From Sphagnum compactum (taxonomy: Eukaryota), in NCBI GenBank assembly GCA_965153455.1, contig OZ234493.1:29936213-30000212 (forward strand): DNA of 64,000 nt. Reading direction: 5' to 3'. The position numbers were made by a program, and so were the translations under genes. Below are positions 1 to 22,540 of this stretch, piece by piece (the first letter of the stretch is position 1; each line of letters starts with the position of its first letter). The notes below the pieces were generated by a model. It had not been told where the DNA came from. It made no database searches and saw only the letters and a program-made list of their open reading frames with translations.

Positions 1-183
1 AACAATTCTTTTCTGCAATTGCAAATTGGCCACTCTCTTTCTTACACACATGTTGGAGAGGAGAATGCCAATGCACACTTTTTTTTTCTTCCCTTCCCCC
101 AAAAGACTGCCATCATTGACTGATGATATTGACGTTGTTTTTTGGATGTGCGTTTGTATGTGTGTGTGTGTTTTTTCCTTCAC

Positions 184-3100
184 CTCTCCAGAGTTTAGAA
201 GATTGTTGATGTCCTCCACAAATCCTTCATTGGTGATCTGTGTATCACTGAACAAGAATACACTAGGTACTGCTGGTTCAGCTCCCGCCTTTTTGCACAT
301 GAGCATTAAGTCATCTCTCCACTCCACTCTTGTGTAGTTCTTACTGATCTCAACCTGCAATTTTGTTTTCCATGTTCAACAAACTCAATAGCAAATGGGT
401 TGTACTTGTACTAAACCCTAAACCCAATTAGCAGATTCATGAAGTACTTTCCTACTCTGCTACAGATGGCTGAACTTGTAATCAACTGTGCCTCTAATCA
501 AGGATGGGTTGTTCTTAATCTGTACCTCTAATCAAAGGATGGTTGTTGTTAATCAGTGCCTAATTATCAAGGATATAATCACAAGATTTTCTCTGTGATC
601 TTCACTAAAATTATTGTGCAGCAAAATCATCGGGTTTTTTTTTTGTTTTTGTTTTTTTTGGGGCACAAATGGAAATGAAAATCCTTTGCAGAAACAGAGG
701 GACAAGAGATTGGGTCAACAACAAAATCATGGGTTTCAAAAGTTTTAAACTTCATAAGTCACAAAGGGTCGATTCTGGAAAGGCACCCATATTCAGGATT
801 TACGTAGCAACCCAAATTGGACATGAATTCATGTCTAATGAATTCTGTTGGTCACCAAGTGTACAAAATTTCATGAGGGAGAAGTTAGAAGGCACATAAT
901 TTATCTAGCTCTAGTGCACTAGTACATTTTGGACTGATCTAAATTCAAAACCTGGAAAACTTCCATACTGTAAATAGCTGCACCAAGTCGGGTTAAGCTC
1001 TGCCGTCCAGAGCCTCCAACTCCAACTAGTAACATGTGGCCTCCTGGCTGCTTCAGGATGCGACAAATGCGAGAAACATGTTCAACCGCAAACAAGAAGA
1101 TGGCAAGATTCATTGGCCGCTTACTGACTCCATTGAAGTCATTCAAATACAATTCTGTTTGTTTTAGCAATGCAGCAATGTCTAGAATCTCATCATAGAG
1201 CCGAGCTTCTGGATCCTCAATCATGCAATCACCAAAAAAGCAGCTGCAAAAAACAAAACAAAACCCAAATTCCTTTTCATTATTTCAGCTCCAGCACATC
1301 ACAACAGCTCAAAAACTGAAAGCTGAAAAAAAATCACAACATACATGCATCACATAATGAGAGAGAATTCTATATATTACCGTCGTAATTCAAATTGAGT
1401 GATAACTTTTACACCATCCCCGAGAAGAGCACCAAACAATTGATCAAAATCTTGTTTGAAATGCTTCTTTGTGAGAGTACGGAGGTATTCAATCAACCAA
1501 TTCCGATCGCTATCATCAACCAAACGGTCATAAAAAACACGTAGAACTTCATGGACCCATAACCTTATATGCTGCAACTCACCAGGCTTTCCAATTGGAA
1601 CTGTCTCCGATTTTTGTAGCATCATTCCCTGGACAAATTGCAATCTTGGGTGGCCTTAGTGCTTTGCATATATCATCTATATGAGTTCAGGGATGATGTT
1701 CTTCACTGAAGCATATTTATATAAGTGTCAGGTTATGTTTCACCACATGAAAGATCCATTGTAATCACATTGTAAACACAACTGGAAAGACAAGAGAGTG
1801 AGAAATAATGTGGATCTAAGTATGCAAACATTGCAACAACAATTGGATTTGGGTTGATAAGCTTTTTGAGAACAAACAAAGCCAAAGCTAAAGCTTTTGA
1901 GTTTAAGCTCTTGAAAACCAACTTGGATCACACGAGCATAATCTCGCAAGTTGAAGGTGTAGTGGGACTTTGTAGGTGTGGGGAGCAATTTCTTCTTTGC
2001 CTCCTTAAAGACATCTAATGTAGCTTCTATCACAGGATTCAATAGGAGCATCACATCTTTCGAGAACTCATTCTTAACACTATAATGCCATCTCAAGATT
2101 GTCGAAAAGATTAAATGGAGTGAACTCTCACCCACCTGCAAGAATCCAAGTAAGATAATAGTGCATTTTTTTAAAAAACCCTTTTTTTCGTCCCTAAGGT
2201 TTGGTTGAAGCCATCATCCTCTTCAAAAATAACCAAAAGGATCCATGCCAACAAAGAGATACTATAATAAAGGAACACTATAATGCTCTCCATCTACTCG
2301 GGATGATCGAGCCGTTATAAACATATTAGTAAATGGCTTAACAATCAAGAATGGGTTGTTGTGTAAAATGCTTCGTCATACTCGTGATGTGATCAAGCCA
2401 CTATAAACATATTAGTGAATGGCTTAACAATCAAGAATGGGTTGTTGGGTAAAAAAATGCTTCCTCATACTCATGATGATCAAGCCACTATACACATATT
2501 AGTAAATGGCTTAACAATCAAGAATGGGTTATTGTGTAAATTGCTTCCTCATACTCATGATGATCAAGCCGCTATACACATATTAGTAAATGGCTTAACA
2601 ATCAAGAATGGGTTATTGTGTAAAATGCTTCCTTGTACTCGTGATGTGATCAAGCCACTATACACATATTAGTAAATGGCTTAACAATCAAGAATGGGTA
2701 GTTGTGTAAAATGCTTCCTCATACTCGGGATGTGATCAAGCCACTATAAACATATTAGTAAATGGCTTAACAATCAAGAATGGGTTGTTGTGTGTTTACG
2801 GGTTTAGGGTTTAAGCCCAATGAAAAGCAATGAAGAAGTTTGGTCTACTATTTGAGATAATGAAAAATTGTTTGGTTAATAACCTGAGCAACACCAATTT
2901 GATTGAAATATCGTAAATATCGATTAGTGACCAAATTTCTTCCTCCTCCCGGAGGACCCATAGCTGATATGAATTGACAATCAACAAGGGTACGGAAGTC
3001 ATTGTCTCTCCCATACCACCCTCCAAAATCCATGTATTGTCGAAGGAGCTCTATAGGTGGTTGTGCTCCATACACTTCAAGCTACATTGCAAAATGCACA

Positions 3101-6100
3101 TGATGATGAGAGGGAATGAAGTGTGTTTTCATTACATCAAGGGGTTCATTTCGAACTCAAACTTTGAATGCCGAGAGCCAAAAAGAAAATACTTAATGAA
3201 AACACATATTACCTGTGGCATATTTAGATCATCAACAAATATGATGCATCTTTTGCCGGGCAATGGACCATAGTGTCCTCGCTTTCTTCGATCGAGCGAG
3301 CCATCGATTTGATTTTGAACCATATTTGCGGTCGTCCGAGCGGAAAGAACAACAAGCAAAGTCGTAAAGAGTTCGCGGGACAAGCCTTTGAGAAGATGTC
3401 GATTCATATAGATCGTCTTGCCCGTACCCGTGCCGCCGACCAATAGAACCGGGCTGCCGTAAAGGATGCCCTTGTCGAGCAAAAACGTGTACCGCATTTG
3501 GTCCTTGGTGGGTATGATAATTTGGTCGAAAGACGAGTCCTCCGCGATTTCCATGGGGATGACGGTGTCGATCCAAGCTTTCCATTTACAAGTGGGTTTA
3601 TCGAAGGTGTAGTTATACACATCACTTCCTTGATCCGAAGGCATCATGTCGCACTTCAAATTCTCATGAACGGCCGGGACGACTAGGTCGAACCCGTCCG
3701 GGATAGTTCCGACCACTAAATTCCTTAAGAAAGTGTCGAATGTAGCGCGACCATCGGTGTCTCCGGTCGACCCAATCGACCAAACCAACGAGAACAAAAA
3801 GATGGAGTCGATCCATTTCACGAGCCTTTCATTCCCTACGTTCTTGAGCCCTTCATCCGTCTTGATCTCGTCGATTAGGCTATAGAACGTTCGCATCAAC
3901 GACGCTACTAACGACGCATCGGCCGTCGGAGAGATTTCCTTGATGTTTTTGCGAACACAACGTAATGCTCCCGATACCATCCACTCGAAAAGGCCTTGAA
4001 GATGCTTCTTGTTGTCGCTCGAGATCGTTCCGGGTAATGTGTTCAACCATGATGCCATTAAAGGTTGCCACCCCATTTGATGTGGCTCCAAATACACCAT
4101 CCCACATCGGCTCACCGTAGCCGGTGATGCAACCGCAAGATCCCCCACCTTTAAAATTTTTTAGGGTTTAGGGTTTTAGGGTTTAGGGTTTACACCCCAC
4201 ATCATGTCATGTTATATACAAAAAAACTCGAAAGAAAAAAAAAAAGGAATTATTTTAAATGGTGACACTACTCTCATGTTGGCAAAAATCGTGGGAAAGT
4301 CACTTACATTATTATTCCTAATAAAAATTAGGTCGGTTCAAAATTAGGTATTTGATTATCATTTTGGAGGTTTTTTTTTTTTTTGAAAATTTAGAAATAT
4401 AAACTATGCCGACAAAAAACTAATTCTTGAGAGAAAAATAAAATAAAAATTATATAAAATTATTTTTAAAAAATTGATTTTTTAAAAGCTTATTATTATT
4501 ACCTCGAAGATCATGTTCATTGATGAAGACATTTGAATGATTTCCGAGTTTGGAAGACAAAGCTTCTTGTTGTCGTCTAACACCGTATTCATATTCTCGA
4601 TCCAAATTGCATCGACGGGGCCATCGAGTATGATCCATTTTCGATCGTTTGTAGGTTCCGAAGCTTGTTCACGAAACCGAACAGCCAGCACTCCATCTTG
4701 CCATTCATTCGTCATCGGGTCGGCTTGCCCGTACAATTGTCCCATTGTGACCGATTTTGGATTAACTGTCGAAACCTGTATTGAATCCATTCCGCCACAC
4801 CCCCCCCCCCCTCCCCCCGCACAAATAATTTGAAAATCACCTACCCGAATAAAAAAGAAATTACGATTAGAATAAAAAAGAATTTCGGTCGTTTTTGTAG
4901 GGGAACGGTTAGGTAACATTGGTGAGATAGATTAATTTGTTTTTCGGGGGTTAGGGAACTCAACTTACGTATACTTTCCGCTCTTTGTTGTTTCCCCATT
5001 GTGACATATCGGTGAGTGCACGTTGAAGAACACGAATGGCGCAAGTTTTGCCCGAATACGAGAGACCCACGAGCATAAGTCCATGCCGGACGATAATCAT
5101 CTCATAAAGTTGGATGAGTTTTAGGTTGAAGTAGGCGGTGAACTGCAAATTCATTTGCTTGCAATTCTCGGACATGGCTTTGTTTATCAAGGTATAATCG
5201 GGTTCAGGAAGAACCACACCCGGGAACAAATCGGACACGATCCCATTGAATAACGGCACATCTTGAGACAAAAACTTACATAGGTTGACATCAATGATCG
5301 ATCGGAGCATGAGAATAAACTCCTCTTCGTCGGGGTATCTTTGTTTGAGATTCGATGCCGCCCGTAACACCGCCATTACGGCTCTCATACCGTAGTCATA
5401 GTGATCTTGACTCGAGAGTTGTTCACTACAAAGACGGTATGTTGCTACAATTTTTCGTGCACAATCTCGAGCCTTCAAAAAGAAAACACCACAAATTTTT
5501 TTAATTTTTTTTTAAAAAAAAATTCATGCTCAATCTCAAGTCTTCAAAAGAAAACCCAACCCAATTTTATTTATTTTTCAATTAAAAAATCAAATACAAT
5601 TTTAGACCTAGAAAATTGGAGAAGTTTGAACCCCAAAAAATTCAATTGTAAGAATTGGATCTATGGGGAAAATGAGCTCGGAAAATTGATGAGCTTGTGG
5701 TAAAAAATTGATCGGGACGTATTATTTATACCTGTAAGTAGCCACTACTATAAAGCATGATCTCGCTAATCATAGCGTAATCGGGAACCATCATAGCGAC
5801 GGTCCGAAAGAGGGCCTTCAAGTTATCTGGCAACTCGGATCTACCCGCATAGCCCGGGTTCATTGTAATGAACACATTGCAAGTAGGTTTGAGAATCAAC
5901 TCCGAACCCTCAAATACAAAAGTCTTCACTTTGTTTTGCACCGCAAGCTGAATCTCCAACACCTGAACAAGGCATCACAAACACGCTGGCCCTGCCAATA
6001 GATAAGATGTTGTACGTCTACTACTACGTATTGTTTAAACCCTAAATCCATTCCAATCTAAGCAATTAAAACCCTAAATCCATTTCCAATCTAAGCAATT

Positions 6101-9100
6101 ACTAAACAATTTAAACCCTAAATCCATTCCAATCTAAGCAGTCTAAACACTTTCAACCAAAAACTTGGTTCATCTTATGTGAAGCCGATTCTAATAAGAT
6201 AAAACTTCCAAAAGTTGGATCCAATGCGATAGTCCCCATGGCCCAACAAAACCCCCCCACAATTATCATATCTAAGTCCCCCCCCCCCCCCCCCCCCCCA
6301 AAGGAAAAAAATTTAGGAAAAAAGAAAAAAGGAAACCTCCCTCCAAGTTTAGGGTTTAGGGTTTAGTAGCTACAAATAATGAAGAACAAATTAGACCCTC
6401 AAAGAACCTTAAACCCTAAACCCTATTTTCACAAACACAACATTAGCATGATGAATGAATTAGTGTATGGGGGAAAATCAATGAGTTTATAGTCTTCTTA
6501 CTTGTTGAGCAACCACCGACAACACTTCGAGATCGATTCGATTGAACTCGTCAAAGCAAGCCCAAGCACCGGATGCGGCAAGTCCTTTAAAGAATTTGGC
6601 CATGGCTAAATAGTCTAGACTATCTGAACAATTGAACACAACACATTGCCGAGCTAGCGCCTACACCGACATACATACACAACCCATGCCCAAACAAAAA
6701 GATCACTTGCAATTACCCACATCAAGACTTTACATCTAGAGACTCCATGATCAAACCCGCATTAATTAATTAATAAACAAGGGGTGTGTTGCACTTTGGC
6801 CTTGCCATCTACATTAAAAAGTATCTTAAGGCAAAAGAAGAATTATGGAAATTCAAATATTTCACCATGCAAAAAATATATATAATCTTCAAAAAATCCT
6901 CTAAAAGAAATCAAATTGCTTCAAGATATTATAACTCCATTATAACTAATCTCAAGTTTCAACACAAGCCAAAATATATCATCTTTCAAAAATCCTCCTA
7001 TAAAAATAGACCTATTATTATTACCTAGTAGGGGCCAAAATCCCTTAAGCTACTATGTAGTCTATAATGAATCTAACCACAATATTGTTGCCTTGGTAGG
7101 CAAGGCCAATAAGGGCTTTTTATAATAAAAAGTCCTTTGTTTTCATACAATTTTTTTGTTGCAATTGTAGTCTTTCTTTGTACCTTAGCCAAGTCCTTTG
7201 TGGTCTCAGTTTTGCCAGTTCCAGCCGGACCTTCGGGAGCGCCTCCTAAATTCAAGTGAATGGCACCCATCAAAGTACGGTAACACCTACATACATACAT
7301 ATATATACATACATACATATATACAAATTCCACAAGATGGCATGAAATGGGTAAGTAATTTAATTAGGGAGTAAGATGACAAAACTCGCACTACATTTGC
7401 ATGAAATCCTTTAACTATGGAACCCTAAATAAACCCTAAATTGCTTTCTTGAAGAGGAAAAGAAGTTGAATGCATCAAAATGACTTCTTTCCAAAGAGAA
7501 AGACAAATAAAAGACCAAACTTTTGAGTAATTAACGGTTTTTTATTTAATTTGATTTTTTTTGAGTCGTTAATTGAAAGATTATCAACATTCTCCAATCT
7601 ATAAAAAAATGTGAGAAAAACAAGCCAAAGATTTGAAGCTTATGTTGTTACCTATCCGTAAGGGGTGTAATCACCAATCTACTCGAGTTGCCCAAATACT
7701 CATACCCATATTCGATTCCGGCATTCATCATACGCACCATACAAGTATTATTCTCCCAATACATACGCAATTGGCTTTGCCAAAGGAAATCGGTCTCTTG
7801 GCTTACATTCTCCCTCGCCATCAAAGCTATGGTATCGCGAGCATGGACATCCATCACCACGAGAGCACTAAGTGTCAATCTATTCATATTCGTGAGTTCT
7901 CCTCGCACTAAATTCACAATCCCTCCTAATTGCAATGTACAAAACTTTTCAAAGAGAGGAACCGCGTCTCCACCTTTGATGATGGCTTCAGTTGCATCAC
8001 TTGTCCAATAAATTGCACTCACCACGAGTACAACTTGTCCAGGCCATTGCAACACCCAAATTTGTCTATCTACATTCGCATATGCCTCTACACCTCGACA
8101 ACATTGATCTTGTACAGATTGAACCATGCCTTCTTCCACCTAACATAAATGAATACATTGTTATACAATCAAAGACACCCAAAAATGCATGCATGGTTTT
8201 TACCAAATTAAGTTCATTACCACCATTTTTTCAATCTCAAGTATATATTTATTTGCGACTTCACATAGATCTTCATATCATGTGCGTGCAATACAAACAA
8301 ACTACTCCTTCAACACCCACCCATTTGTTTGGTTGAGGAAAAATGAAAATTGGAGTTTAATACAATGCTACACTCTTGAATAAATTGTTCTATCACATGT
8401 GCTTGTCTTAAGATCATTTTTCCAATCTCAAGTAGGTTTATTTCTATTAACTTTACATAGATCTACATATCAAGTGTGTGCAATACAAATTATTGCTCCT
8501 TCAACACCCACCCATTTGTTTGATTGAGTGGGTGGGGGGGGGAGGGACTTACAATGCTTCAACAATGTTAAGACACTCTTGAATAAATTGTTGTATCAGA
8601 TTTTGTGTGAGTAATCAAGACTAAAAAAACTAAGACAATTTTAGGCTTTTATGAACTTGAGAAGGTTAGTGCTACCCAAATCGTGAAAAAGCTCAAAACT
8701 TGCAACTTCAAAAGTGTGATTCTTCTCATAGCAACCAAAGAGACACAACCCAATAAATTATGTCCATGCAGAAGGTTCCAAATCATGGAATGACCAAGTA
8801 ATTGTGTGTTTGCTAGTTATTTAGTCAATGGATTTGGGAGTTGCTTGAGATGAAATTTTATTACTTGTAGAAGCCATCGTTCCACGGCTCCTTGGGCAGT
8901 TTTGGGATTGAACTTGTCGACAAGGGGAACAATTTCTCCTTCAGCTGAGATCATAGCAGTGATGTCAAGATTGTGTTCAAATTGTAGTAAGCTGATTCCT
9001 TCAAAACATTTTTTCAAGTGTGGTTGCACTCGTAGTGGGTCTTTTGTCTCAGACAAAATCTCCAACATCTCATCATTTGAGAGGAAAAAGAATCGAGGAA

Positions 9101-12100
9101 AAGCAATACGTTTCACCTATAAAATTGCAAACCAAAAACCCCACACACACACATTCACATAAACACCCTCTTCAAATACATCCCAACCAAAACCATGTAA
9201 ATATAACAATGTGTGAATCATTGCTTCCTTTGAAGATTCACTAGAAAAACACACACACCCATGAGGAGCAACAATTAAACTCAACAAGGATTTACTTATT
9301 TCCCACATATTTAACATGATTGTATACTTTAATCAACATCAATTTCATCATCTAATCAAACATTGTGAAAATCTTTAAGATTGATAATGGAAGTTATTCT
9401 TTACTAATAATACCTCCCAATCAAGGTTTTTTTTTTTTTTTTTTTTTTTGGGGTGGGGGTCAATTTTTTGTGTAGAATCATTAACAAGCATTCAAGAAAG
9501 ACCTAGCATTAACTAATGACAAGCTTTTAGAAAAAACATTCAAAAAATAGAAAATTGGCAAAAAAAAACTACCCACTAACAAATTAATTGAAATGTGGTG
9601 AAATTTTCCCCCAAGAACTTTTTTCTTGAATTTTTTATTCAAAAATCTGCCACTGAGTAAATAACACTACTCCCAAGTATTGAAATTTACCTCCAAGTAT
9701 TGAGCAAGACCTTTGTTGACAAGCTCAAGAAGACGATTCGCCTCAATCAATTTGTTAAGCCTTTCGGTATCTTTTGCAGCTTCCAAACAATCGGGATTCG
9801 CAAATGTTTTCTTCATGACATCGCGCCAAGTTTGATCTACGGTTTGAAAGAGCTCTCCTTCGGTTGGCATTTGCCTCATGATATCACGAGACCCAAATAT
9901 GGGACCCAAGTATTGCCATGTTCCTTGGCAATTCAACCAATTATCGACTAAGGATTGTAAGTCCAATACTATTGTACGCCATGCAAAAGCTTGCGTTTCA
10001 AATGGTTTGATAAATGGAGACGCACACATTGAAAGGATTTTCACAATTTGTTCATCCAAAATCATTTGAATGTCATCAATGCCTCCCACAATGTATGTCC
10101 CCGAATCCTTGTATGGCAACACAAGGAACTCAATGCCCTCCCAATCCTTCAACATTTTTTCTAGTGATTTCTCAAATGAGTACTCCTTACTAGCAGCTCC
10201 ACTTAGGTTCCGGACCTACAAAATCGAAGTACAACCAAATGATCTTTATTTATTTTTCCTCCCTTGACCAACATAATTTTTTTTCGGGGCAAATCTTCAC
10301 CACTTGGAAACATAAAAATAAATCCATTGCATCTCATACAAAGCCAAGTATTTTGGCTTGTAATTGTGAAGAACTCTCAACTTAAAAATGAAGTCCATAG
10401 GTTTCAAGGTGTGGGTTTGAAGTAGCAAATTTACCTAGAGTCCATAGTGCACCCATTCATGGGGTTAAGTACATTAAGGGGGTGAGAGAGGAAATTATTG
10501 CAAGTATTTTACCTCTTCAATTTTGCTCATTATGTCATATGAGAGCAAGTCATTGGTACTAAAGGGAAGTTCGGAAGAGTAGGGTTGGCCAAGTAATGTA
10601 AAGATTTGCTTCCAATGTCGCTCTTTCAATGCGGGATTTGCGACTTCTTCCATGAGTGTTACATATTTTTTGAAGTCATCAATCGTATCCTTGAGTCTAT
10701 ACACAACCGTATCTTCTTTGTTTGCCTTGCCCATTCGGAAGGCGTCCTTAGCGTATTCATCCGTTTTGCTGATTATCAAGGGGGCCTTCAGCTCTTGAAC
10801 ATGGCAAGTCCGCCAATTTGTTGTCATTAGGATCCAATCGTTTAGAGCCTTCCATACATTCCACCTTGAGGCGAACTCTTTTTGTGTCATTGCTAGGTTC
10901 CCCATATCGTCGACCGCCATCTACAAATAGAGAAAGAAAAAAATTCGCATAATTTATTTTTAAAAAGAGGAACTACCCAACATTTGTATAATTAATAATC
11001 TCTTTTAAAAAATTACAATAAATGAAAAATCTTGAAGTTTTTTTTTTTTTCTTTTAAAAAGAAGGCACTTCGAATGAGGGTAAATATTGACATTCATCTC
11101 ATGTATAATTAATTTGGTAGCAAAATAATAATACCATCATCCCAACACTAGGGTTAACCCAAAAAATACAAAGAGTGACCTTCATAAGGCCCTTCCAAGG
11201 GACGTTATTTTACATAAATTTTGAGTGTGTGGATGAATGATTGGATGGAAATTCTAGTATAATAAACCTGGAAAAGTTTTTGGTAACCCTTGTAGCGGTC
11301 AACCGTCTCCACAATCTCTTGAATACGTTCGTTGATTTTGGTGAGATCGGCAACAACTTCAGCCGGATCTGATTCGGGGATCAAGAATTTGCCGGAATGA
11401 AGCGTGCCCAATATGGTCATAAGCTCCTCGCTTATGAGGTTAACTTGCTTGTCGAGATCGGCCATTTGAGCATTCTTGTGTCTCTCGATGAAGAAATCGG
11501 CGGCCTCAATCGAGTCCTCGTATTTTCCCACGACTTCATGCAAATCGTCTAATTTGACTTGATCGTTAGTCGGAATCTTTACCTCATATGCGGCTAGCAA
11601 TGAATACATGTCATCGATTACGGACGCATCTTGAAGTGATTGCTTTTTACCCTCCATCATTTTCAAATACAACTGCAAGAGAAAAAAAAATTAAAAAAAT
11701 TCCACCGACCCTCCCCCCGGAAAAAAAAACATTAGATAGGGTGACCCTCCCCCCGGAAAAAAAAAACATTAGATAGGGTTTTCTATTTTGGATTGTTTGG
11801 TGCTATAAAAATTTGGAGAATTTTTTTCATCCTGAGGCTCAATAGCCCCCCAGTTTTCAGGTAGAAAACTTGACTACTTACCAGAGTTATCTGTAAAGTA
11901 ACCCTCTCTTCACCCTGTCTTTGGGCCTCCTTTCACTCCCTATCCCCTCTTTCAGTGGTATACACAAAGTAAAGACAGTATGAAACTCAGTTTACCACCA
12001 AAATTGATCGTTTTCTGAGCATTCATCCCCAGTTGAATGCTAATGTACTTTTTTTTTTTGCAGGTTTTTTTTTGAATCTCACCCTGTGTATGACCAAACA

Positions 12101-15100
12101 CAGGGTTATGGTGCAGTGTTTTTCTTACTTTATATGGATAACTCTAACTGCATGGGGGGGAAAAAAATTTTAAAAATTGTTTCCTTACAGTGACAAAGTT
12201 TACGAAAGCATCCAGTTGCAGAGGTCGAATCTCAAGTTGTCGGATTCGGTCTTGAAATGTGTTGAGCACCGAGAGCGTCTCGTCCCTCGCATTTTTTATC
12301 AACAATGCTATGATTGTGTCCAAAGTCCGCACTGTAATTGGAATTAGATGATTTCTCAACGACTTTGAGTCGACTTGCAAAACACCAATGACACTGCATC
12401 ATCCGTCACAAATCATGGATGATTTCCATTCTTCCAAAAGTTTCATCCAATCTCACTAAAGACAATAACATATATATATATATATAATCACCTTCATTGG
12501 CTTAATCCTTTTTCTTACTAAGCTTTAAGGAAATTATTATTTTTATAAAAAAATTATAGGTTTTTTATTCCCTTGGAGGAAGGACCCCAAAATTTTTTAT
12601 AACATATCGTAATTAATTAACTACTAAATAAACCCATACCTCCCAATACGCATTTTCTCAAGCTGAATTCGGTTTTCACGTTCTTTGGACATTGCGTCTC
12701 TATATGTTCGCACCGATCTAGGCACAGCTGCATAAGCCTCATAGTTCCACGACTCCCCGAATGCAAACAAGGTTCGATGTTCCTCAAATATCTAAGATGG
12801 ATAACCCCCACCATGCCGCATTTATTTTATTTATTTATTTATTTATTTATTTGGGGGGCAGGGGGGGCGGCGATTTTGTGATATAAAAAAGTTGGTGAAA
12901 ATATCCAAAAACAAATTGTCAAAATTAGTCGAATTTACACTAGAAAATCAAAGCATTTGTGATATATAAAACGCAATTGAAAATACCATATTGTGGAAAT
13001 TATATACCCACTTGCGTATATGCTCGCGCTTCCATGAAGTCGAGCTTCACAACGGTAGCTATACGTTCGCAAACAAGTGCAAAATAAGAATTCCCCTTGA
13101 TGATATTGATAGGAGATATGCCGGTGAACTTTGTTTCAAAGTACCCCGAAAAAATCCGCATGTATAATATGCGCGGTGCCGATTGCACTAACTGAAGTAG
13201 CCCTTCAATTGTATTGTGAAGAGCCTACAAACAAAGTGGTGTGTTCGAATTTTTATTCTTTTCCAAAAAAAAAATTCACGGGTTTTTTAACCCCCAATTT
13301 TATGATGTAGCCAAATTGCTGATCATCCATAAGAAGATTTAGCCAAATTTGGCCATAGACTAACCATATATGAAAAAATAATAATTAATTAATTAATTTG
13401 GCGTCTTGTTGGAACCTATTGTAAAAATTTGATGATTTCATTTTTTTGTTTTAAAATTAATGCCATTCTTTTTAACAAAAATCCTTTGTACAATGTGTAA
13501 AATCAAAATTTTAAGGTGAAAATTATGTGAAAATTTGCCCCAAAAAGGCACTCATTATATTAGTATTAAATAATAATAACAATAATAATAATAATAATAA
13601 TAAAATACTCAAGTGAAAGTGTTATTAAATTACTACTAACTAACCCCAAGAATATCACGCTCGTTAGGAACAAATTCAATTGTTGTCGGGCCGAACGAAA
13701 CGGCCGTAGTAAATACACCCTTTGGTGATTTCTCCATTCCGGATCGGCAGATCTCGAGCATGCCTAACAATTCTTCGGTCGATGTTACGCACCGATGGCT
13801 CAAATGCTCGACGAATATGTAATCGGCGAGACGGATGAAATTTCCGAGCATCTTTTCCTCCACCATTACTCGGCGATACGATTTCGCTCTCTCGATTTTC
13901 TCGGCCTTGATGCTCACCATGCTCTGTGCCTTGTTCTTTCCGGTCGCGTGCAAATTGACTCCAACCGTGTCGTCCAATTCGGATTCATCCCTCACACTTT
14001 CCTGGCGATATCAAATATAAAAATTTTACACCCCTGCCCGGTGTTTTTTTTTGGGACATTTTTTTGTTTTTTCTTTTTTGACCAAAAAATTGGGAAAAAG
14101 GAATTTTTTTGGAAAAAAAATTGGAACTTTCGTTGGGGAATTTTTGCCAAATTTTTAATATATCTAAAAATTGGGGGCAAAAAAAGAAAAGAAAATACCC
14201 TGCCCATGACACTAAAAAAACACCCTGAAGACTTGAAGAGTCCATTTCAGAGTCATCTGTAAAAGTAGGGGCTACTTAGCCCCAGTTTCTATCAAAATTG
14301 GGGACCGAATCAAAAGTCAGTATGAAAGAAGAAAAGGGACTAGGTCATTTTTTTCTCACACCTAAATTTGGTCCTCACAACAGTTTCACCCTCCAGGTCT
14401 TTAGTTTGCACCTGACTTATTATGCAAAGTAGGGGGCTATTGTGCCCTAATTTCATTGAGATTAGGGGACCAAATCAAAAGTGAGGATGAAAAAAGTAAA
14501 TGGAAACAAAGGAAAGGGGGGTAAAAAAAAGAAAAGAAGAGAAGACCAAACTTTTGTTTTGCTCACCTAAAACTCACCACAAGAGTTTTGGTGGTCCCCA
14601 AGAGTTTTCAACCGGAGTTTTAGATTTCATTGTTGCACCTTCTTCTTCATTGCTACTAATAAATTTATTCATGAAATCTTTTGCATTTTCATTTTGGACG
14701 AAAAAAACTTTTTGGATGAAATGATTTAAATTTATTTTTTTCCAAATTGGTTTTTAATTTTTGAAAAAAAATCATTTTTCATGATAATTGTGAGGAGAGA
14801 AATGAAATTTTTTTACCCGATAAATTTGAGCTTGTCGTTTTGCTTCTTCACAAATTTTGGCGAGTACAACTTGACATTTTTCAGCAATAGCATCAACATC
14901 GGCAATTGCTTTGTGCTTTTGAAGCTCGACTTGGAGATGGCAAAATTCATCCAATTGATGTAGATGATTTTGCGAAACATGAACCAAAGGAAGTTCTCTC
15001 AACTCACAAATGTAGGCGTACACTTTCATCAGCGCGCCAATAAACTGAGGCTTGGCGAAAAAGAATTTTTTGGAAAGGCTCGAGCACACACGATTGAACT

Positions 15101-18100
15101 TGCGCTGACCGACGTATTTCTTCCATACGTTGTACGCCTTTTGGCATAAATATTGACCAAAGAAGGGTATACGCCTTAGAAGGGAAAACACATATTTCTC
15201 GCGCATGTATTCTTCAAGTGGTTGGAAGCTGCTCTCTTTCATTGTGCCTGTTAGAAAAACCCCATCACAACACCACCCAAAAAAATTGTCATCCATCCAT
15301 AAAGATGATAAATATTCAACATACTAAATTGAAAACACATGGGGGGTGGATGGGTGTTGGTTAGCATGGTTGAATCCCAAGTGAATCCGTGACAATCATC
15401 CATCAGTTATGCATCCATCCATCCATCAGTTATCTATCCGGGAAATGTTTCTGTAATGGACTCCACCACATGACCTTAGAATGTATCTTAAGGCAAAAGA
15501 GGAATTATGGAAACTCAAACATTTCACCGTGCAAAAATATAACCTTCAAAAAATCGTCTAAAAGAAACCCAAAAATCCTTTCAAGATATCATAACTCTCA
15601 TAACTAAATAGACAGATGATGGGATGCATGAAATGTCTGTCCGGCTTAAATAGACGGATGACGAGATGAAATGAAACTTTCCATCCGGTTGGATGACGGG
15701 ACGGATTAAGGGAAAGCTTCACGACGTCCTTTACTATATATAATAATAACCTCAAGTTTCAACACAAGCCAAAATATATCATCTTTCAAAAATCCTCACA
15801 TAAAAATTAGACCTTTCATCCGGGGGGCCAAAATCCCTTAAGCTACTACTATATACTCTATAATGAATCGAAACACAATATCGACCAACGAAACAAGAAT
15901 GAAACTTAATCAATCATCCATCCATAACAAAGTGACTCATCCATTCGTCTAATGATGGCCCCTTGTACCAGTTTTATACCAGTCTCACTACTAGTGTTTA
16001 GGGTTTAGGGTTTTTAATATTTATTTTGTACTAGCCAAAAATCAGTCTTGGACCTAATACCAAGCAAGACCAGATTGGTATGAAAGTTTTTTAAAAGTAC
16101 CCAATAGCCTTTTTTTTTTTTTCTGGCTATATATATATATATATATATATAGTCAAAAAGTGAGGTTACAAATTGAAAGTGCCAAAATTGAGTGTTTTTT
16201 GAGATTTTTAGTAGCCAGAATTTGCCGAAAATTTAAAGAAAATTGTCAGATTTCTTCTATACATGGTTGAAGTAAGTAGGGCAGAAACATAGAATGATTG
16301 TTCAATTTAATTTTTTTTACAAAGTTTCATATTTAGCTTGTAGCCAAAATTTGGCAAAATTGAAAGAAAGAAAAAAAAAAAAAAAAACAATTTTGAGTCT
16401 GCTTACCAAGGCCAGGTTCAATATGAACAACACCCGAATTGGAGATAGTGAAAGACTCGTCATTCACCTCCTCTCGTCGACATACGACCAAATCATACGG
16501 CTTGTACTCCGCAATGCCACAAATTGCTAAGTTGCAATAGAAGAATTTCACTCGAGCTTGGCCCTCGTGCTCCGCAAAGAAATGAACTGCTTCATCCCCC
16601 GTTTTTATATGTTCCAGGTTCAGGTCGGTTACTTCACTTGCCTAAAAACCGGACAAAATTAACCACCCGTGTATATATACATATTATTATTATTTTTTTT
16701 ATTTTTTTTACTATGGCTTAAAAGACCGTAACGGTGTTACAAATCAACAAAAATTTGTGAGACTTTAGGAAAACAAAGAACCGAATGCACATTTGCTTTT
16801 ATGTGTGGAGGTGGAAACGGACAATCATTTATTTTGTGACTCCAAAAATCGTCATGTTTTTCACATTTTTTCTCATCATCTCTTAAGTATTCAAAATGGC
16901 ATTTTAAATCCATGAAAATTTTTACATAAATAAAATTCTCAACAATAATTGCTTCCAAAGTGGGGTAATTAATTAAAGACCAACAAACATTGCATATTAT
17001 TATAATTATAATAATAATTATAATACATTTGGTTGGCTTTTTTTTTTTTTTTAAATGAAACCTTGAGCTTTGCTTTATCATCATCAGCACTAGAGGCTCG
17101 CAAAGCTTTGGTGGGTTTCTTTTGCAGCTCCACAACTGGCACACTGAAATTTAACAAATTTAACAAAAAATAATGTCCGCTTATATAACATGAGCAACAC
17201 TTGCAATCTTTTTCTAGGGTTTTTTCTAGGGTTTTTTTTTTTTTTTGTGGGGGGGGGATTTTTTTAGGGTTTAAGAATTAAGGGATTTGAACCCCAAACA
17301 AGATTTAATAGGCAAAAAAAATTTATGCCAATCATGAACTAGGCACATGAAGAACACATGAAGAACAAACACATAATCCCTAAGTTTAATTTACATGGGT
17401 GCCAATGTATGTTGGATGCAATAGATGTGGGTTTTGTTCAAGATTTCTGCAAAAAGAGAGAGAGAGAGAGAGAGGGGGGGGGAAAAGCGAATAATTTGAA
17501 CTGGAGTTTTTAAATGAATTTTGAAAAATAAAATTGGGTGTCTCCGAAGAGAAAAATGACAATTAATTTTGTGTCAAGTAGGTACCTAGCGGATCGTTTC
17601 AATTTGGACTTAATTCGGTCGGTTAAAACATTTGCGGGATCCCTCAACACATCTCGCCATCCACCAAAATCAGGATACACAACCGAAACATCTTCGACGG
17701 GACGAAGAAATCCGAGGTTGTTGGCAATCGCTCCTTCAATGCCAATGGGTGGTACGCTCTCTGAAGGTTGCCAAAGAGTTGCACCCCCGATTCCATCTTC
17801 TCTTGGCCGGAGTCGCCTCTTGTGAAGTTGATACATTTGCTCCAATTCCTCGGGGCTTGGAATCCCATAAATCGGAGTCGATTTTACAACTGACTCTTGC
17901 GGGTGCCAAGCTCGATATCGACCAAATGAGGTCATTGACTCAAGTGGTGGAGAAGGAGGAGGAGGAGGAAGAGGTGCAAAGGACGACAACGCAAAGTCAT
18001 TTGGTCGATCATCCTTCATAAGAATAGCAATCGCATTCTCTTCCTTTAAGGATTTGTTGTCTCTTGTTGAACCATCAAGAAGATCAAGAGCTTTCTTCAC

Positions 18101-18457
18101 ATTCCCTCCCTCAATTTGATCCTTGACTACTATCGATTTTGGGGTTGAGGATGGACTTGAAGGACTCGATGGAAGGTGGCTCGAGGAGGAGAGTGCACTC
18201 CTTGGTGGTGAAGATGATGATCGAGATGTTTCTCCTGGCAACAAAGCTTTTCCTCGTTGTCGTTGGTTGGGTGTTGTCTTTTTCTTGTGACTAGGAAGTG
18301 CGGGATCATGGTGTTGCATTCCCACACTTTTATTGATCTTGATCAACATTTGTAACATCTCTTCAGTTGATGCCTCTGCTTCGAATGCCGTCGTCCTCCT
18401 CTTATTACTACTTGACCCACTACTACCACTACTCTTCTTCTTCTTCTTCATCTCCAT
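184..18457 (-). CDS. Axonemal inner-arm dynein heavy chain (single-headed, DNAH6-like N-terminal tail); 3' part continues beyond the left window edge
   Basis: 24 GT-AG exons joined in phase by hand (5'->3'): 18457-17586, 17143-17062, 16641-16407, 15247-14817, 14001-13645, 13224-13012, 12791-12640, 12393-12189, 11672-11268, 10920-10513, 10215-9691, 9116-8865, 8139-7652, 7286-7184, 6660-6502, 5962-5732, 5472-4969, 4775-4503, 4148-3213, 3081-2884, 2135-1923, 1628-1381, 1243-952, 354-184 (7953 nt, 2651 codons). Hallmark motifs: linker [20 protein letters not shown]1 [18 protein letters not shown] and [22 protein letters not shown]2 GLSYSGKT and [28 protein letters not shown]3 [11 protein letters not shown]4 [10 protein letters not shown]. 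Subfamily is from recalled similarity (YKPYDLVV...[15 protein letters not shown]), not a search. Confidence 0.95.
2295..2793. repeat. Intronic minisatellite, ~86-bp unit x ~6
   Basis: Core aaatggcttaacaatcaagaatgggtt recurs at 2331, 2417, 2504, 2588, 2674 and 2760 (periods 84-87 bp). Confidence 0.95.
4160..4192 (+). repeat. Interstitial telomere-like (TTTAGGG)n tract
   Basis: tttagggtttagggttttagggtttagggttta. Similar tracts at ~2796-2813, 6347-6366, 6410-6425 (opposite sense), 15997-16013, 30620-30643, 30700-30750 and 47903-47925. Confidence 0.85.
6037..6149. repeat. Short tandem repeat x3 (aaaccctaaatccattccaatctaagca)
   Basis: Three copies visible in a dynein intron. Confidence 0.85.
6776..7085 (+). 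mobile_element. Dispersed ~310-bp non-coding repeat, family A, copy 1
   Basis: Shares ttaaggcaaaagaagaattatgg...ctcaagtttcaacacaagccaaaatatatcatctttcaaaaatcc with 15468-15880 and, reverse-complemented, with 46755-46998. Confidence 0.75.
8223..8598. repeat. Diverged ~190-bp direct duplication in a dynein intron
   Basis: caatctcaagta...ctccttcaacacccacccatttgttt...cactcttgaataaattgtt occurs at ~8223-8397 and ~8415-8598. Confidence 0.85.
11707..11778. repeat. Tandem duplication, ~36 bp
   Basis: gaccctccccccgg(a)ncattagataggg twice. Confidence 0.85.
14262..14640. repeat. Diverged ~165-bp duplicated intronic repeat, related to the reverse strand of ~11820-11860
   Basis: aaagtagggg(g)cta...ggggacc.aatcaaaagt at 14262 and 14426. 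Confidence 0.6.
15468..15880 (+). mobile_element. Family A repeat, copy 2, with a ~140-bp internal insertion (~15605-15745)
   Basis: Collinear with 6776-7085 except for extra sequence between ataact and ctcaagtttcaacac. Confidence 0.7.
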
Positions 18458-21400: not shown

Positions 21401-22349
21401 TTGTTGGACATTTCATAAATGATCATAGTGATTTAAAACATGGGGAACTTGATGTTCTTGCCATTAATCCATATCCTTCATCCTAAATCCTAAAGGCAAT
21501 GAACATTTTATCGGCATGCAATTAGGTAGTCCACAATTGAATTAATTACAAGCCAACTTCGTTGATTAGAATTTCATCCACCTATGGTTTTTCTATCCAT
21601 TGTTGTGCCAAATGGGTGTCCAAACAATGGAATCGCACCATACACAAAAGCATGGTGCCAATTTAATTAACATTTAGTGGCTTTAATCAGGCAAACTATT
21701 TGCTAAATCATGAGTGTGATTAATGAAATCGGGTAGAACCTCAACTAATTCATGAAAACTTAAGTAAAACTATTTCATTTAAGACTCACAATGTTTTGGG
21801 TTTAGAATCACACTTTATTAACAAAGTCATATTTCTAGAAAATCTTTTACCATGTGAATTTATTTTTTCAAAATAGACTTCAATTTTAGTATTAGGATAA
21901 GAATTTCTTTAATAATAGTAGTCGTCAATGGTTTGCTTAAAGGAAGGATTGATCCATTATGTGTAAGCTTTGAATGCCTTAGGGTTCCATGTTTGCTTGA
22001 GGAGGGGAAGATGAAACAATATGAAGCTTACCTTCACAAGCTTGTCTGCCTTAGTGTGCCTTGAAATGCCATATGATATCCTATGGCAAGTTTGCAACCA
22101 TTCATAAAGCACCATCATTTATAATAATACCCGGTATAGAAGACAATTGTAATAATTTTTTTCTTAATAATGAATAATTATTTCTTGTTAGTAAATGCCA
22201 ATTCAGAAGTTATTTTAATTCATATGACAATTTCTATTTGTTACTTCATAAAGCACTAGAGAAATTTCCTAGTGTATTTGGAGGCCACCTTTATATCCAT
22301 GAATATCCCTCTCACTCTTAAAGCAATAAGTGTAAGAACCTTCCTTCAT

Positions 22350-22540
22350 CGTGATGTAGTTGAGGTGGTGATCATCCATAAGGTGATTTAGCCAAATTTG
22401 GCTATTAAAATTATGGGAATTTATACACATATATATATATGGGCTACCTAGTTTAATCATGTATAAAAATCTGAATTTGGTTTTGAATTTTGGTGATTTT
22501 GTAAAGAAAATCATTGAATTTACAACAATACAATTCAATT
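22350..22540 (+). mobile_element. Dispersed repeat family B (palindrome TAGCCAAATTTGGCTA)
   Basis: Perfect 16-bp palindrome at 22389-22404 preceded by gatcatccataagg. Related copies at ~13300, 16120-16360, 23120-23330, 39640-39880, 60640-60845 and 62450-62680. Confidence 0.7.

Follow-up and report, generated by a model that had tools for sequence, protein, structure and literature searches.

The 5′ domain of a dynein heavy chain gene in Sphagnum compactum has been purged of CAG and CTG trinucleotides (CWG), and this purge is conserved in several Sphagnum lineages together with its internal boundary, accompanied by faster neutral evolution and by replacement of the motif at its middle base. 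The depletion is motif-specific and strand-symmetric, and exceeds what composition and coding constraint would produce. Related peat mosses have this loss of CWG with CG kept in common, which may reflect chromatin of an unusual kind at this putative sperm gene. Positions refer to the whole 64,000-nucleotide stretch analyzed (the window). Counts are given as observed/expected (O/E), with expectations taken from base composition unless a first-order Markov model is stated.

Gene Model and Expression

Pfam domains were found in five of six exon ORFs (DHC_N2, 1.4e-55 and 1.3e-21; AAA_6, 2.3e-48; Dynein_AAA_lid, 5.5e-32; AAA_7, 1.1e-37); the tail exon ORF at 14775-15323 had no Pfam match. Their order, from the DHC_N2 linker through the AAA1 hydrolytic site and AAA lid to the AAA3 P-loop region, is that of a dynein heavy chain, and the tblastn HSPs run in the same order as residues 189-2597 of a 4234-aa relative. 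A search among proteins of at most 2000 aa gave named matches such as “dynein heavy chain 7/12/3, axonemal” (36-43% identity). The minus-strand gene probably encodes an axonemal inner-arm (single-headed, DNAH7/DNAH12/DHC-like) heavy chain, the inner-arm class being suggested by these named matches. Exons 4-23 join into 6336 nt free of stops, and synonymous codon differences outnumber non-synonymous ones 166 to 27 against the related sequence L002 and 72 to 8 against L001 (domain). By these measures the gene is intact and under purifying selection. The gene model and other features are listed in Table 1.

Repeat-free dynein exon bins (1335-4002 and 7338-11339) had a depth of 0-0.06 in one polyA RNA run of unspecified tissue, of which ~12% was read and which was considered without a control gene. 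From the gene family, together with this near-zero depth in a single run, expression is presumed to be sperm-specific.

Table 1. Features of the dynein gene and its surroundings. CWG and CG values are observed/expected counts unless otherwise stated.
Feature	Positions	Strand	Evidence
CWG-purged, CG-preserving domain (exons 1-20, introns 1-19)	1900-18457	-	composition counts
3′ part of dynein gene (exons 21-23), extending past window edge; CWG normal/high, CG poor	1-1899	-	counts
Exon 1, 872 bp, start codon at 18457, donor uncertain (17586 or 17561)	17586-18457	-	open frame from MEMKKK; tblastn HSP 17941-17645
Exon 2, approximate ends	16411-16641	-	tblastn to P0181 and P0191
Exon 3, approximate 5′ end	14817-15296	-	tblastn; 349 relatives at E ≤ 0.001
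Exon 4	13645-14001	-	splice model; CWG 2/10.6, CG 32/20.8
Exon 5	13012-13224	-	splice model
Exon 6	12640-12791	-	splice model, donor re-fitted
Exon 7	12189-12393	-	acceptor set at 12393, avoiding in-frame stop
Exon 8	11268-11672	-	splice model
Exon 9 (DHC_N2)	10513-10920	-	splice model; Pfam DHC_N2 E = 1.3e-21
Exon 10 (DHC_N2)	9691-10215	-	splice model; Pfam DHC_N2 E = 1.4e-55
Exon 11	8865-9116	-	splice model
Exon 12	7652-8139	-	splice model
Exon 13 (AAA1 P-loop region)	7184-7286	-	splice model; 86-100% identity to dynein homologues
Exon 14	6502-6660	-	splice model
Exon 15	5732-5962	-	splice model
Exon 16 (AAA_6)	4969-5472	-	splice model; Pfam AAA_6 E = 2.3e-48; CWG 2/14.0
Exon 17	4503-4775	-	splice model
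Exon 18 (Dynein_AAA_lid + AAA_7), strongest CWG purge of all exons	3213-4148	-	CWG 2/28.8, CG 75/57.0; Pfam
Exon 19	2884-3081	-	splice model
Exon 20, final exon within purged domain	1923-2135	-	splice model; CWG 1/5.2
Exon 21, acceptor uncertain (1628 or 1654)	1381-1628	-	splice model
Exon 22	952-1243	-	splice model; CWG 13/7.9
Exon 23, 3′ end from HSP only	181-354	-	HSP, splice model
Intron 2 with high-copy repeat	15297-16410		CWG 14/20.9; depth 18313 (X9) in bin 15342-16008
Intron 3 with repeat-like insertion, CWG kept	14002-14816		counts; CWG 11/14.8
Intron 7 with high-copy repeat, CWG kept	11673-12188		CWG 17/11.2, CG 4/18.1; depth 23699 (X9, summed contigs) in bin 11340-12006
86-bp tandem array, 5.7 copies, intron 19	2304-2793		~400 bp domain-side of boundary
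Block upstream of dynein gene, low in CWG and CG	19001-23500		Markov CWG O/E 0.22; 500-bp CG O/E 0.07-0.40
PPR gene (comparison), CG-poor and CWG-rich	28250-29767	-	counts
AT-rich, ORF-poor comparison block	31000-44000		CWG 27/199.8, CG 50/284.5, CCG 5/46.7, CGG 5/37.9

Extent and Specificity of the CWG Loss

The two CWGs of exon 18 compare with 28.8 expected from composition (Poisson P = 1.4e-10) and 20.0 under the Markov model (P = 4.5e-7), while CG (75 vs. 57.0), CCG (23 vs. 15.0), and CGG (16 vs. 13.2) all exceed expectation. Exon 1 has 6 CWGs vs. 25.1, and the whole stretch 1923-18457 has 120 vs. 365.8, with 467 CGs vs. 588.2. Every hand count in the original prediction was reproduced, including those for exons 3213-4148, 4969-5472, 1, and 952-1243 (13 vs. 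7.9) and for a PPR stretch at 28261-28500 (12 vs. 6.8). Retention of CG holds for the domain exons (7205 bp; CWG 58/196.0 = 0.30, CG 372/359.7 = 1.03) but not for the introns (9330 bp; CWG 61/159.6, CG 94/239.3, or 0.39). Without the three repeat insertions in introns 2, 3, and 7, intronic CWG O/E is ~0.17. NCG codons are not avoided in the domain (TCG 44 vs. TCA 32).

With the two strands pooled there are 32 trinucleotide classes, of which only CAG/CTG is an outlier over 2000-18460 (Markov O/E 0.36; the rest 0.79-1.39), and CCG/CGG stand at 1.03 in the domain. Both motif orientations are low on the sense strand, equally so in domain exons (CAG 29/93.3, CTG 29/101.2) and also in introns other than 2, 3, and 7 (13/50.0 and 6/57.9). 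Splice acceptors follow the same pattern, with 6 CAG, 11 TAG, and 2 AAG in the domain vs. 8 CAG and 2 TAG in the 3′ part (P = 0.02). The boundary, placed within the gene at 1.3-2.9 kb by the original prediction, was found between positions 1782 and 2033. Segments of 500 bp with CWG O/E < 0.35 and CG O/E > 0.8 number 12, all of them in 3001-18000; this amounts to 12/33 in 2001-18500 vs. 0/95 elsewhere (P = 1.5e-8).

Codon Control and Middle-Base Replacement

The loss persists under codon control. The 58 CWGs observed compare with 230.5 ± 10.4 under the codon usage of neighboring genes and 129.0 ± 8.9 under the gene’s own, and none of 1000 resamples per model came down to 58. Glutamine is encoded by 11 CAG and 91 CAA codons in the domain (39 and 25 in the reference set), and C ends the first codon in only 5 of 68 NNY-WG pairs (NNT-WG 63), as against 352/714 in other contexts (P = 9e-13). 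CWG is also low out of frame (phase 1, 35 vs. 75.3; phase 2, 5 vs. 35.0; 0/1000 shuffles), and loss of similar strength is seen in all three codon phases.

Replacement of CWG at synonymous sites, which the original prediction had offered as an alternative, is borne out by xCN-G codon pairs: the third base is A or T in 35/141, compared to 226/353 before non-G (W : S = 35 : 106 vs. 226 : 127, P = 2e-15), and xCC-G and xCG-G are overrepresented in the domain. At four-fold sites of the form C_N_G, CWG accounts for 11-19% of states vs. ~62% at C_N_H sites. Four-fold sites before WG carry T in 10/35 cases vs. 92/326 elsewhere; thus T does not compensate for the missing C. Because the shift from xCW-G to xCS-G takes place at fixed amino acids, deamination cannot produce it and a second force is needed. 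As for the deamination products of CWG, their Markov O/E values in domain exons are 1.54 (CAA), 1.28 (TTG), 1.19 (CTA), and 0.94 (TAG), and in domain introns 0.97, 1.08, 1.12, and 1.25, respectively.

Comparison with Other Sphagnum Lineages

Orthologous pieces from three to four other Sphagnum lineages, 5-6% apart, conserve both the domain and its internal boundary. L001 switches state at the place orthologous to the boundary in the window, its 5′ 5300 bp having CWG 0.15 and CG 0.98, and its 3′ 7687 bp CWG 1.26 and CG 0.34. Values for L002 are CWG 0.24 and CG 0.94, and for L003, CWG 0.05 and CG 1.24. The intron 7 repeat also occurs in L002 and has one short motif in common with the intron 3 insertion, and the tandem array gives multiple-offset HSPs in L001 and L004.

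Between the window and L001, differences at four-fold sites number 47/313 in the domain vs. 2/93 in the 3′ part (P = 4e-4), and in introns 100/1034 vs. 44/1162; the corresponding figures for codon positions 1 and 2 are 8/1438 and 5/476. Neutral divergence is thus 2.5-7 times faster in the domain, which constitutes a separate mutation regime. Exonic CG appears to behave as mostly unmethylated: with 128 ancestral CGs, gains (34) about balanced losses (31), and four-fold sites adjoining G diverge just 1.3-1.8 times as much as other four-fold sites. Such a reading is limited to exons, because the domain introns are CG-poor and their CGs diverge fast (50/167 differ, 3.8 times the divergence of CHH cytosines).

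Surviving CWG cytosines of the domain, most of them constrained or within repeat insertions, were not faster than CHH cytosines between lineages (17/265 vs. 356/7110, P = 0.32). For intron CWG cytosines the figures are 13/97 vs. 225/2852 (P = 0.057), with transitions at 6/97, and a six-fold rate at surviving CWG is ruled out (P = 6e-6). Between these relatives, then, motif cytosines do not detectably show the raised transition rate of a decay footprint. Exonic CWG differences (n = 18) fall mostly at the middle base (14, vs. 4 at the outer C or G), and 26/29 of the relatives’ exonic CWGs are common to the window. In 12 of the 14 middle-base differences it is the window lineage that holds CWG, gained via CpG transitions (two polarized by both relatives). 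Changes between C and G are raised at CCG/CGG four-fold sites (10/108 vs. 12/604), and C_N_G four-fold sites are the fastest-evolving (0.222).

The 3′ Part, Neighboring Genes, and AT-Rich Blocks

The 3′ part of the gene has the opposite composition, both in exons (CWG 23/17.9 = 1.29; CG 17/31.6 = 0.54) and in introns (CWG 27/20.0 = 1.35; CG 3/31.1 = 0.10). Ordinary neighboring genes are likewise CG-poor with normal CWG: CG is 0.0-0.57 and CWG 1.2-2.06 over 24.5-30.5 kb, and the Markov CWG O/E of neighboring genes is ~1. CWG is also normal in the short, unmethylated-looking genes of the window (AP2/ERF, PRA1). Low CG without CWG loss, in the 3′ part and its neighbors, is the composition that CG-only gene-body methylation would be expected to leave.

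The AT-rich block at ~31-44 kb proved poor in both CWG and CG (Table 1), in line with the original prediction, with Markov O/E of 0.12 for CWG and 0.49 for CCG/CGG. TE domain matches were found in 0/10 of its ORFs (31000-44000), and “TE-like” here describes composition only. The dynein domain shares the CWG half of the signature of these blocks. The TE-like methylation that had been proposed for the gene fits poorly with its exons, where CG is kept; joint loss of CG and CHG, as in TE-like methylated genes, is confined to the domain introns.

Possible Origins of the Purged Domain

Moss CWG methylation is described as the work of PpCMT alone, with mCCG dependent on PpMET (PMC6453930), which would explain the sparing of CCG/CGG and CG in the domain. 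Work on P. patens reports an enrichment of cilium terms among genes with differentially methylated positions, and CHG/CHH marks on the flagellar gene hydin in the strain where it is not expressed (bioRxiv 10.1101/728691). In Marchantia, MpCMTa and MpDNMT3b are reported to extend non-CG methylation during spermiogenesis from 35% of the genome to 96% (bioRxiv 10.1101/2021.02.12.428880).

The explanation we favor, with a little less than even confidence, is that the promoter-proximal ~16.5 kb forms a separate germ-line chromatin and mutation domain, on which chromomethylase-type CWG methylation acts or for a long time acted, and from which the CG methylation marking ordinary genes in the window is kept out. 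Such a state would suit a gene silent outside spermatogenesis. The chromomethylase substrate motif would have been purged over time, by 5mC deamination at unconstrained sites (CWG to TWG/CWA) and by a second force, which would be selection acting against CWG or else a repair bias linked to methylation. This force is required because CWG also gave way to CCG/CGG where the protein dictates the flanking C and G and only the middle base can change synonymously. The explanation draws on the specificity and codon independence of the loss, its effects on introns and acceptors, the enzymology, the conservation, the mutation regime, exonic CG, the moss precedent, and RNA depth; that a chromomethylase reads the motif and that the domain is silent chromatin we infer. 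Against it count the lack of hypermutability at surviving CWGs, the xCW-G to xCS-G shift, and the CG-poor domain introns, and it gives no reason for the switch of state at exon 20/21 within one transcription unit. The original interpretation is supported in part: it stands as to a motif-specific, symmetric, codon-independent loss that extends to introns and matches the CWG half of TE-like blocks, but surviving CWGs do not change detectably faster.

Alternatively, though this is rather unlikely, the domain may be unmethylated today, with selection removing CWG from exons and introns against the chromomethylase/H3K9 loop and so keeping the gene transcribable beside TE-like DNA or during a wave of non-CG methylation in spermatids, such as that of Marchantia. 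Similar depletion in all codon phases, synonymous middle-base change with conserved flanks, the rarity of CWG at C_N_G four-fold sites, surviving CWGs without hypermutability, and a pattern kept in three to four lineages would all be consistent with such selection, as would the excess of CWG in the window lineage, as though constraint had relaxed there. A TE-like block also adjoins upstream, and repeats lie within introns. However, selection would have to be effective on single, even intronic, sites, yet repeat insertions with 11-17 CWGs each were fixed and are common to lineages. Constraint also predicts that C_N_G four-fold sites be slowest, not fastest; the gene’s own 3′ part is rich in CWG, and the evidence comes from one gene.

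A relic of an earlier genomic setting, or a CWG reader unrelated to chromomethylase (a nuclease, a repair bias, or a recombination-linked process), seems improbable. It would agree with the lack of detectable present-day CWG hypermutability, the CWG gains by CpG transition in the window lineage, and the raised C-to-G exchange at CCG/CGG sites. But boundary and purge strength are common to lineages 5-6% apart, the domain’s high neutral rate would wipe out a fossil pattern comparatively fast, and CWG is a known CMT substrate that is lost in TE-like blocks as well.

Pure passive decay, the main reading of the original prediction, in which long CWG-only methylation, C-to-T deamination, and purifying selection account for everything, is more doubtful again. 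CWG decay is demonstrated in this genome by the AT-rich block, and high exonic CAA and TTG, the preponderance of NNT-WG over NNC-WG and of TAG acceptors, and introns poorer in CWG than exons all point the same way. Both deamination routes from xCW-G alter the amino acid, yet W went to S synonymously; T is not raised at four-fold sites before WG, and there is no present excess of outer-C transitions.

An RNA- or codon-level artifact, that is, avoidance of cryptic splice signals or rare codons in an intron-rich gene where CAG belongs to both splice consensus sequences, was rejected as extremely improbable, being contradicted by strand symmetry, intron depletion, the low out-of-frame counts, and a TAG frequency that is not low (0.94 in exons, 1.25-1.27 in introns).

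It is a speculative and improbable idea that peat-moss sperm genes are made “methylation-proof” by selection purging promoter-proximal CWG, as phages purge restriction sites. If so, the domain would be a conserved firebreak, tens of kilobases long, that the CMT/H3K9 loop could not cross while chromomethylase floods the spermatid genome, and late-spermatid genes would be recognizable by sequence alone. The class of germline genes put forward in the original prediction would have this one gene as its basis.

Comparison with Known Systems

In Arabidopsis ibm1 mutants, genic CHG hypermethylation follows exposure of gene bodies to the chromomethylase/H3K9 loop. TE-like methylated genes resemble the proposed state of the dynein domain in such exposure, linked to silence, but their methylation includes CG, whereas dynein exons retain CG with balanced gains and losses. 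The likeness to CpG depletion by 5mC deamination (in vertebrates and CG-poor gbM plant genes) lies in a methylatable motif that is scarce over a defined domain, with sequence neighbors in excess (here CAA, TTG, and TAG acceptors) and a footprint serving as a proxy for germ-line methylation. The differences are that the motif is CWG, exonic CG is spared, loss also proceeds through an unmethylatable middle base, and relatives show no detectable transition excess at the motif.

Angiosperm gbM genes are described as having more frequent CAG/CTG and less CG (PMC8995044, PMC11265718), and this contrast with unmethylated genes parallels the pairing of CWG-rich/CG-poor and CWG-poor/CG-rich composition seen here even inside one gene. 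The angiosperm contrast, as described there, is a modest shift in frequency, whereas CWG here is 0.07-0.3 of expectation; moreover, unmethylated-looking short genes here have normal CWG, and the host is a moss. As far as the literature covered extends, gbM is not reported in P. patens and Marchantia. The P. patens hydin gene, as described, is likewise a moss flagellar gene, with gene-body CHG/CHH marks tied to non-expression such as are proposed for the dynein domain; that study concerns methylation differences between two strains, and its account, as far as covered, reports no footprint, CWG depletion, or boundary. Phage and bacterial restriction-site avoidance, the model for selection against CWG, offers an analogy in which selection eliminates a short palindromic motif on account of the enzyme that recognizes it, albeit in another kingdom and with a nuclease in place of what here would be a silencing methyltransferase.

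A CWG-poor, CG-normal domain within a dynein gene

Using a 500-bp profile and a Markov table (first order) covering every trinucleotide, we distinguished four compositional states in the window, which are summarized in the table below with the other features of the locus. The dynein stretch is the one that combines normal CG with a scarcity of CWG (CAG/CTG), the motif of chromomethylase (CMT). CAG/CTG is the sole trinucleotide outlier there, with an observed/expected ratio (O/E) of 0.36 in the Markov table vs. 0.79–1.39 for all the rest. The 500-bp windows with CWG below 0.35 and CG above 0.8 (n = 12) all lie within positions 3001–18000, making up 12 of the 33 windows in the domain vs. 0 of 95 outside it (P = 1.5e-8). 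Domain exons contain 58 CWG (196.0 expected) and 372 CG (359.7), and domain introns contain 61 CWG (159.6) and 94 CG (239.3). Most of the intronic CWGs (42 of 61) are in introns 2, 3, and 7, which contain repeat insertions, as shown by sequence whose summed depth is very high in each of three DNA runs; in the other introns of the domain, sense CAG stands at 13 for 50.0 expected and CTG at 6 for 57.9. The limit of CWG depletion falls inside the gene, between positions 1782 and 2033, and this switch of state between exons 20 and 21 lies some 400 bp away from a tandem array of 86-bp units, which is also present in relatives (L001 and L004, introduced below, align to it at several offsets).

The original prediction, a CHG-methylation footprint on a sperm-specific dynein gene, had been built on hand counts of CWG in dynein exons and in a PPR gene, and every one of these was reproduced. 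It had also described the AT-rich block at 31–44 kb as depleted of CG and CWG; this is so, and CCG/CGG are scarce there as well. A Pfam search found no TE domains in 10 ORFs of that block, and 107-nt direct repeats are the single repeat family found in it.

The gene model rests on collinear tblastn HSPs on the minus strand, covering residues 189–2597 of a 4234-residue relative, combined with ORF limits and GT/AG sites. It comprises 23 exons and continues beyond the left edge of the window; exons 4–23 joined give 6336 nt free of stops, while the ends of exons 1–3 are uncertain, as is the exon 21 acceptor. Five of six exon-sized ORFs match Pfam families (DHC_N2, AAA_6, Dynein_AAA_lid, AAA_7), and the named relatives include the axonemal heavy chains 7, 12, and 3. 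Moss axonemes are built only in sperm, so expression of the gene is presumably sperm-specific. In one polyA RNA run, of which about 12% was read, with tissue unstated and without a control gene, depth on repeat-free dynein exon bins was 0–0.06. Elsewhere in the window, the PRA1-family protein shares 96–97% identity with Sphagnum proteins, one of them named Sphagnum jensenii, and bryophytes are the first relatives found by the PPR protein.

Compositional states and features of the locus, with orthologous pieces from other Sphagnum lineages. Values for CWG and CG are observed counts with expected counts in parentheses, or O/E where indicated. Substitution differences are to the window, per aligned site.
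Feature	Position or extent	CWG	CG	Remarks
Dynein stretch	~1.9–18.46 kb			CWG-poor, CG-normal state
Ordinary genes (PPR and others) and dynein 3′ end	1–1900, 24000–30500, 52500–54500, 56000–58500	at least as expected	O/E 0.0–0.5	CG-poor state, CWG normal or high; exons and introns
Short genes and gene 5′ ends (AP2/ERF, PRA1)		normal	O/E near 1	CG and CWG both normal
AT-rich blocks	19–23.5 kb, 31–44 kb, others	poor	poor	also poor in CCG/CGG
Dynein exon	3213–4148	2 (28.8; P = 1.4e-10)	75 (57.0)	
Dynein exon	4969–5472	2 (14.0)		
Dynein exon 1		6 (25.1)		
Dynein exon	952–1243	13 (7.9)		
PPR stretch		12 (6.8)		
Just upstream of dynein start codon	18501–19000	10 (10.5)	0 (16.6)	opposite of dynein exon 1
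Tandem array, intron 19	2304–2793			86 bp, 5.7 copies, 91% matches; just within compositional boundary
High-depth stretch, introns 14/13	6004–7337			summed depth up to ~1.5e5 in three DNA runs
High-depth stretch, introns 7–4	11340–14007			as above
High-depth stretch, intron 2	15342–16008			as above
High-copy repeat	6671–7337			many polyA RNA reads, one strand (depth 146 vs. 2)
Most conserved motor exon	3336–4002			zero depth in three DNA runs
Microsatellites	~23700–24100			dinucleotide; ORF translations are ER../CV.. runs; between CWG/CG-poor upstream block and next gene
Direct repeats, AT-rich block	33648–34627			five degenerate 107-nt copies, 63–79% identity to reference copy
L001				274/5604 differences
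L001, 5′ part	5300 bp	O/E 0.15	O/E 0.98	
L001, beyond window's left edge	7.7 kb	O/E 1.26	O/E 0.34	
L002	10.8 kb	O/E 0.24	O/E 0.94	562/9385 differences
L003		O/E 0.05	O/E 1.24	207/3223 differences
L004				67/1147 differences

The high-depth stretches in the dynein introns mark high-copy repeats, and polyA read starts accumulate at 6200 and 6781. The zero depth at the motor exon probably comes from a filter against sequences resembling conserved or human genes rather than from a deletion.

Depletion under codon, strand, and splicing controls

In the codon control the protein was held fixed and codons were drawn, 1000 times each, from the gene's own usage or from a reference set (dynein exons 21–23 together with the ORFs of the PPR, AP2/ERF, and PRA1 genes; 4080 nt). 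The depletion persists once amino-acid content is controlled: the expectation was 230.5 ± 10.4 CWG under reference usage and 129.0 ± 8.9 under the gene's own, and the 58 observed fell below every draw of both models. Synonymous shuffling within the gene likewise left cross-codon CWG in deficit (35 vs. 75.3, and 5 vs. 35.0; 0 of 1000 shuffles as low), a deficit that the reference set lacks. Glutamine codons are split 11 CAG to 91 CAA in the dynein gene vs. 39 to 25 in the reference, and the corresponding shift for lysine and glutamate is far smaller. The depletion is thus not an effect of amino-acid content or codon usage. Splicing or translation signals are ruled out as its cause by the equal depletion of sense CAG and CTG and the undepleted TAG in the domain, which together indicate a property of double-stranded DNA. 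Splice sites are shifted as well: the domain uses 6 CAG, 11 TAG, and 2 AAG acceptors, vs. 8 CAG and 2 TAG in the 3′ part, for which window and L001 were combined (P = 0.02, one uncertain site omitted).

Conservation of the domain and its boundary among Sphagnum lineages

Metagenome contigs scanned with exon 18 returned four loci (L001–L004), all orthologous pieces from other Sphagnum lineages. L002 and L003 are near-identical (7 differences in 3223), and the window, L001, and L002 are roughly equidistant (139, 142, and 150 differences over 2265 shared columns). All four relatives carry the CWG-poor, CG-normal signature, and L001, which extends past the left edge of the window, switches composition at a point orthologous to window position ~1850. 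The domain and its internal boundary are therefore older than the split of the lineages. The 3′ half of the dynein gene resembles ordinary genes depleted of CG. In exon columns aligned between window and L002, the counts are 35 CWG and 260 CG for the window, and 23 and 295 for L002; either the lineages differ in the strictness of the pattern, or the L002 branch holds the root.

Neutral change is also faster in the purged domain, by 2.5–7-fold. Between the window and L001, 47 of 313 4-fold sites differ in the domain vs. 2 of 93 in the 3′ part (P = 4e-4), as do 75 of 719 vs. 5 of 238 third codon positions and 100 of 1034 vs. 44 of 1162 intron sites. Codon positions 1 and 2 are alike in the two parts (8 of 1438 in the domain, 5 of 476 in the 3′ part). 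Codon differences to L002 number 166 synonymous vs. 27 non-synonymous; the protein is under strong constraint throughout. In contig pieces of three further runs, “other letters” exceeded the level of 1–2350 in 15 of the 16 listed domain pieces, which, as the listed pieces were selected by the tool, is rough support at most.

Routes by which the motif is lost

Part of the evidence agrees with C-to-T decay: third-position C before WG (NNC|WG) occurs at 5 of 68 positions vs. 352 of 714 in other contexts, CAA and TTG are over-represented in domain exons, and TAG is the most frequent acceptor in the domain. The idea that CG-context cytosines are the only protected ones in a domain with non-CG methylation was rejected, because NNC|G has no general advantage (C fraction 0.40 vs. 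0.49).

The pairs written xCN|G behave otherwise. Their third base is A or T in 35 of 141 cases vs. 226 of 353 before a base other than G (P = 2e-15). Either deamination in xCN|G changes an amino acid, so this A/T deficit disagrees with C-to-T decay. xCC|G and xCG|G are over-represented, the total of xCN|G is scarcely lowered, and the reference genes lean the opposite way. The shift is a synonymous replacement of the middle base, and it is here that the alternative offered in the original prediction, replacement of CWG at synonymous sites, is borne out. At 4-fold C_N_G sites of exons 4–20, C<->G transversions (CCG<->CGG) between lineages are seen at 10 of 108 vs. 12 of 604 other sites (P = 6e-4), a contrast that is weaker on 4-fold sites occupied by C or G (~12% vs. 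5%).

Two further results disagree with C-to-T decay. Hypermutability between lineages was not detected for the surviving CWG cytosines of the domain (17 of 265 differ vs. 356 of 7110 CHH cytosines), most of which are at constrained sites or within repeat insertions, which limits the comparison. For intronic CWG cytosines (13 of 97 differ vs. 225 of 2852 CHH; transitions 6 of 97) a six-fold rate is excluded. Of the 18 exonic CWG differences located where the alignment is unique, 14 are at the middle base, of which 11 are transitions, and the window has the CWG in 12 of these 14. In the two cases that both relatives cover, the window lineage reads as having changed CGG or CCG into CAG or CTG, by a three-lineage polarization that is unrooted, among nearly equidistant lineages, and may in part be reversed. 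The relatives share 26 of their 29 exonic CWGs with the window; parsimony over the 2265-column overlap gives 5 ancestral exonic CWGs, too few for a loss rate.

CG inside and outside the domain

Exonic CG in the domain behaves as if largely unmethylated: unrooted parsimony gives 34 gains and 31 losses for 128 ancestral CGs, and divergence at 4-fold sites adjoining G is just 1.3–1.8 times that of others. An apparent three-fold hypermutability of exonic CG (174 of 1738 vs. 131 of 4258) was mostly gone at 4-fold sites alone, and arises because CG sites are mostly synonymous positions. CG is scarce and fast-changing in domain introns, where 50 of 167 differ. The gene is thus a mosaic, with CG decaying in the introns and kept in the exons. 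CCG/CGG have a Markov O/E of 1.03 in the domain and 0.49 in the AT-rich block. Base composition further suggests that ordinary Sphagnum genes may carry widespread CG-only gene-body methylation (gbM), unlike model bryophytes; the accessible portions of the P. patens and Marchantia literature report no gbM.

Discussion

All results on the domain come from a single gene in one window and its orthologues. We conclude that the domain is probably a conserved compartment of chromatin and mutation, purged of chromomethylase substrate. Chromomethylase is the most economical link to the purge, because CWG is its motif, because the TE-like blocks of the window lose CWG too, and because flagellar genes of another moss carry CHG/CHH marks when silent, according to the available part of one study (bioRxiv 10.1101/728691). 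In Physcomitrella, the sections available describe PpCMT alone as controlling CWG methylation and outer-cytosine methylation of CCG as needing PpMET (PMC6453930; bioRxiv 10.1101/363937). With chromomethylase on and CG methylation off, CWG would therefore be lost and CCG/CGG and CG kept, as observed. Deamination alone is probably insufficient for the purge, and the second force would be either selection against CWG or repair tied to methylated CWG that alters the middle base.

Sequence footprints of CG methylation are a standard means of reading past germ-line epigenetic states. The dynein CWG purge is a methylation-type footprint that is real, conserved, and partly unexplained. In a search of open-access literature, we found no CWG-specific depletion domain described in any plant gene, no Sphagnum methylome, and no clean footprint of the chromomethylase motif alone in a functional gene with CG spared. 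If the cause is CWG-only methylation, the chromatin state would be new for bryophyte genes, as far as the accessible text of published methylation work goes: genic, non-CG only, bounded within a transcription unit, and with neutral substitution 2.5–7-fold higher. If it is selection against CWG, the gene would be a eukaryotic example of site avoidance toward an epigenetic enzyme.

Since short genes of the window that are apparently unmethylated keep normal CWG, absence of gbM alone fails to explain the purge. Angiosperm gbM genes have more CWG and fewer CG, according to the portions available of two papers (PMC8995044, PMC11265718); as described there, that association has the same polarity as in the dynein gene, but its contrast is far weaker.
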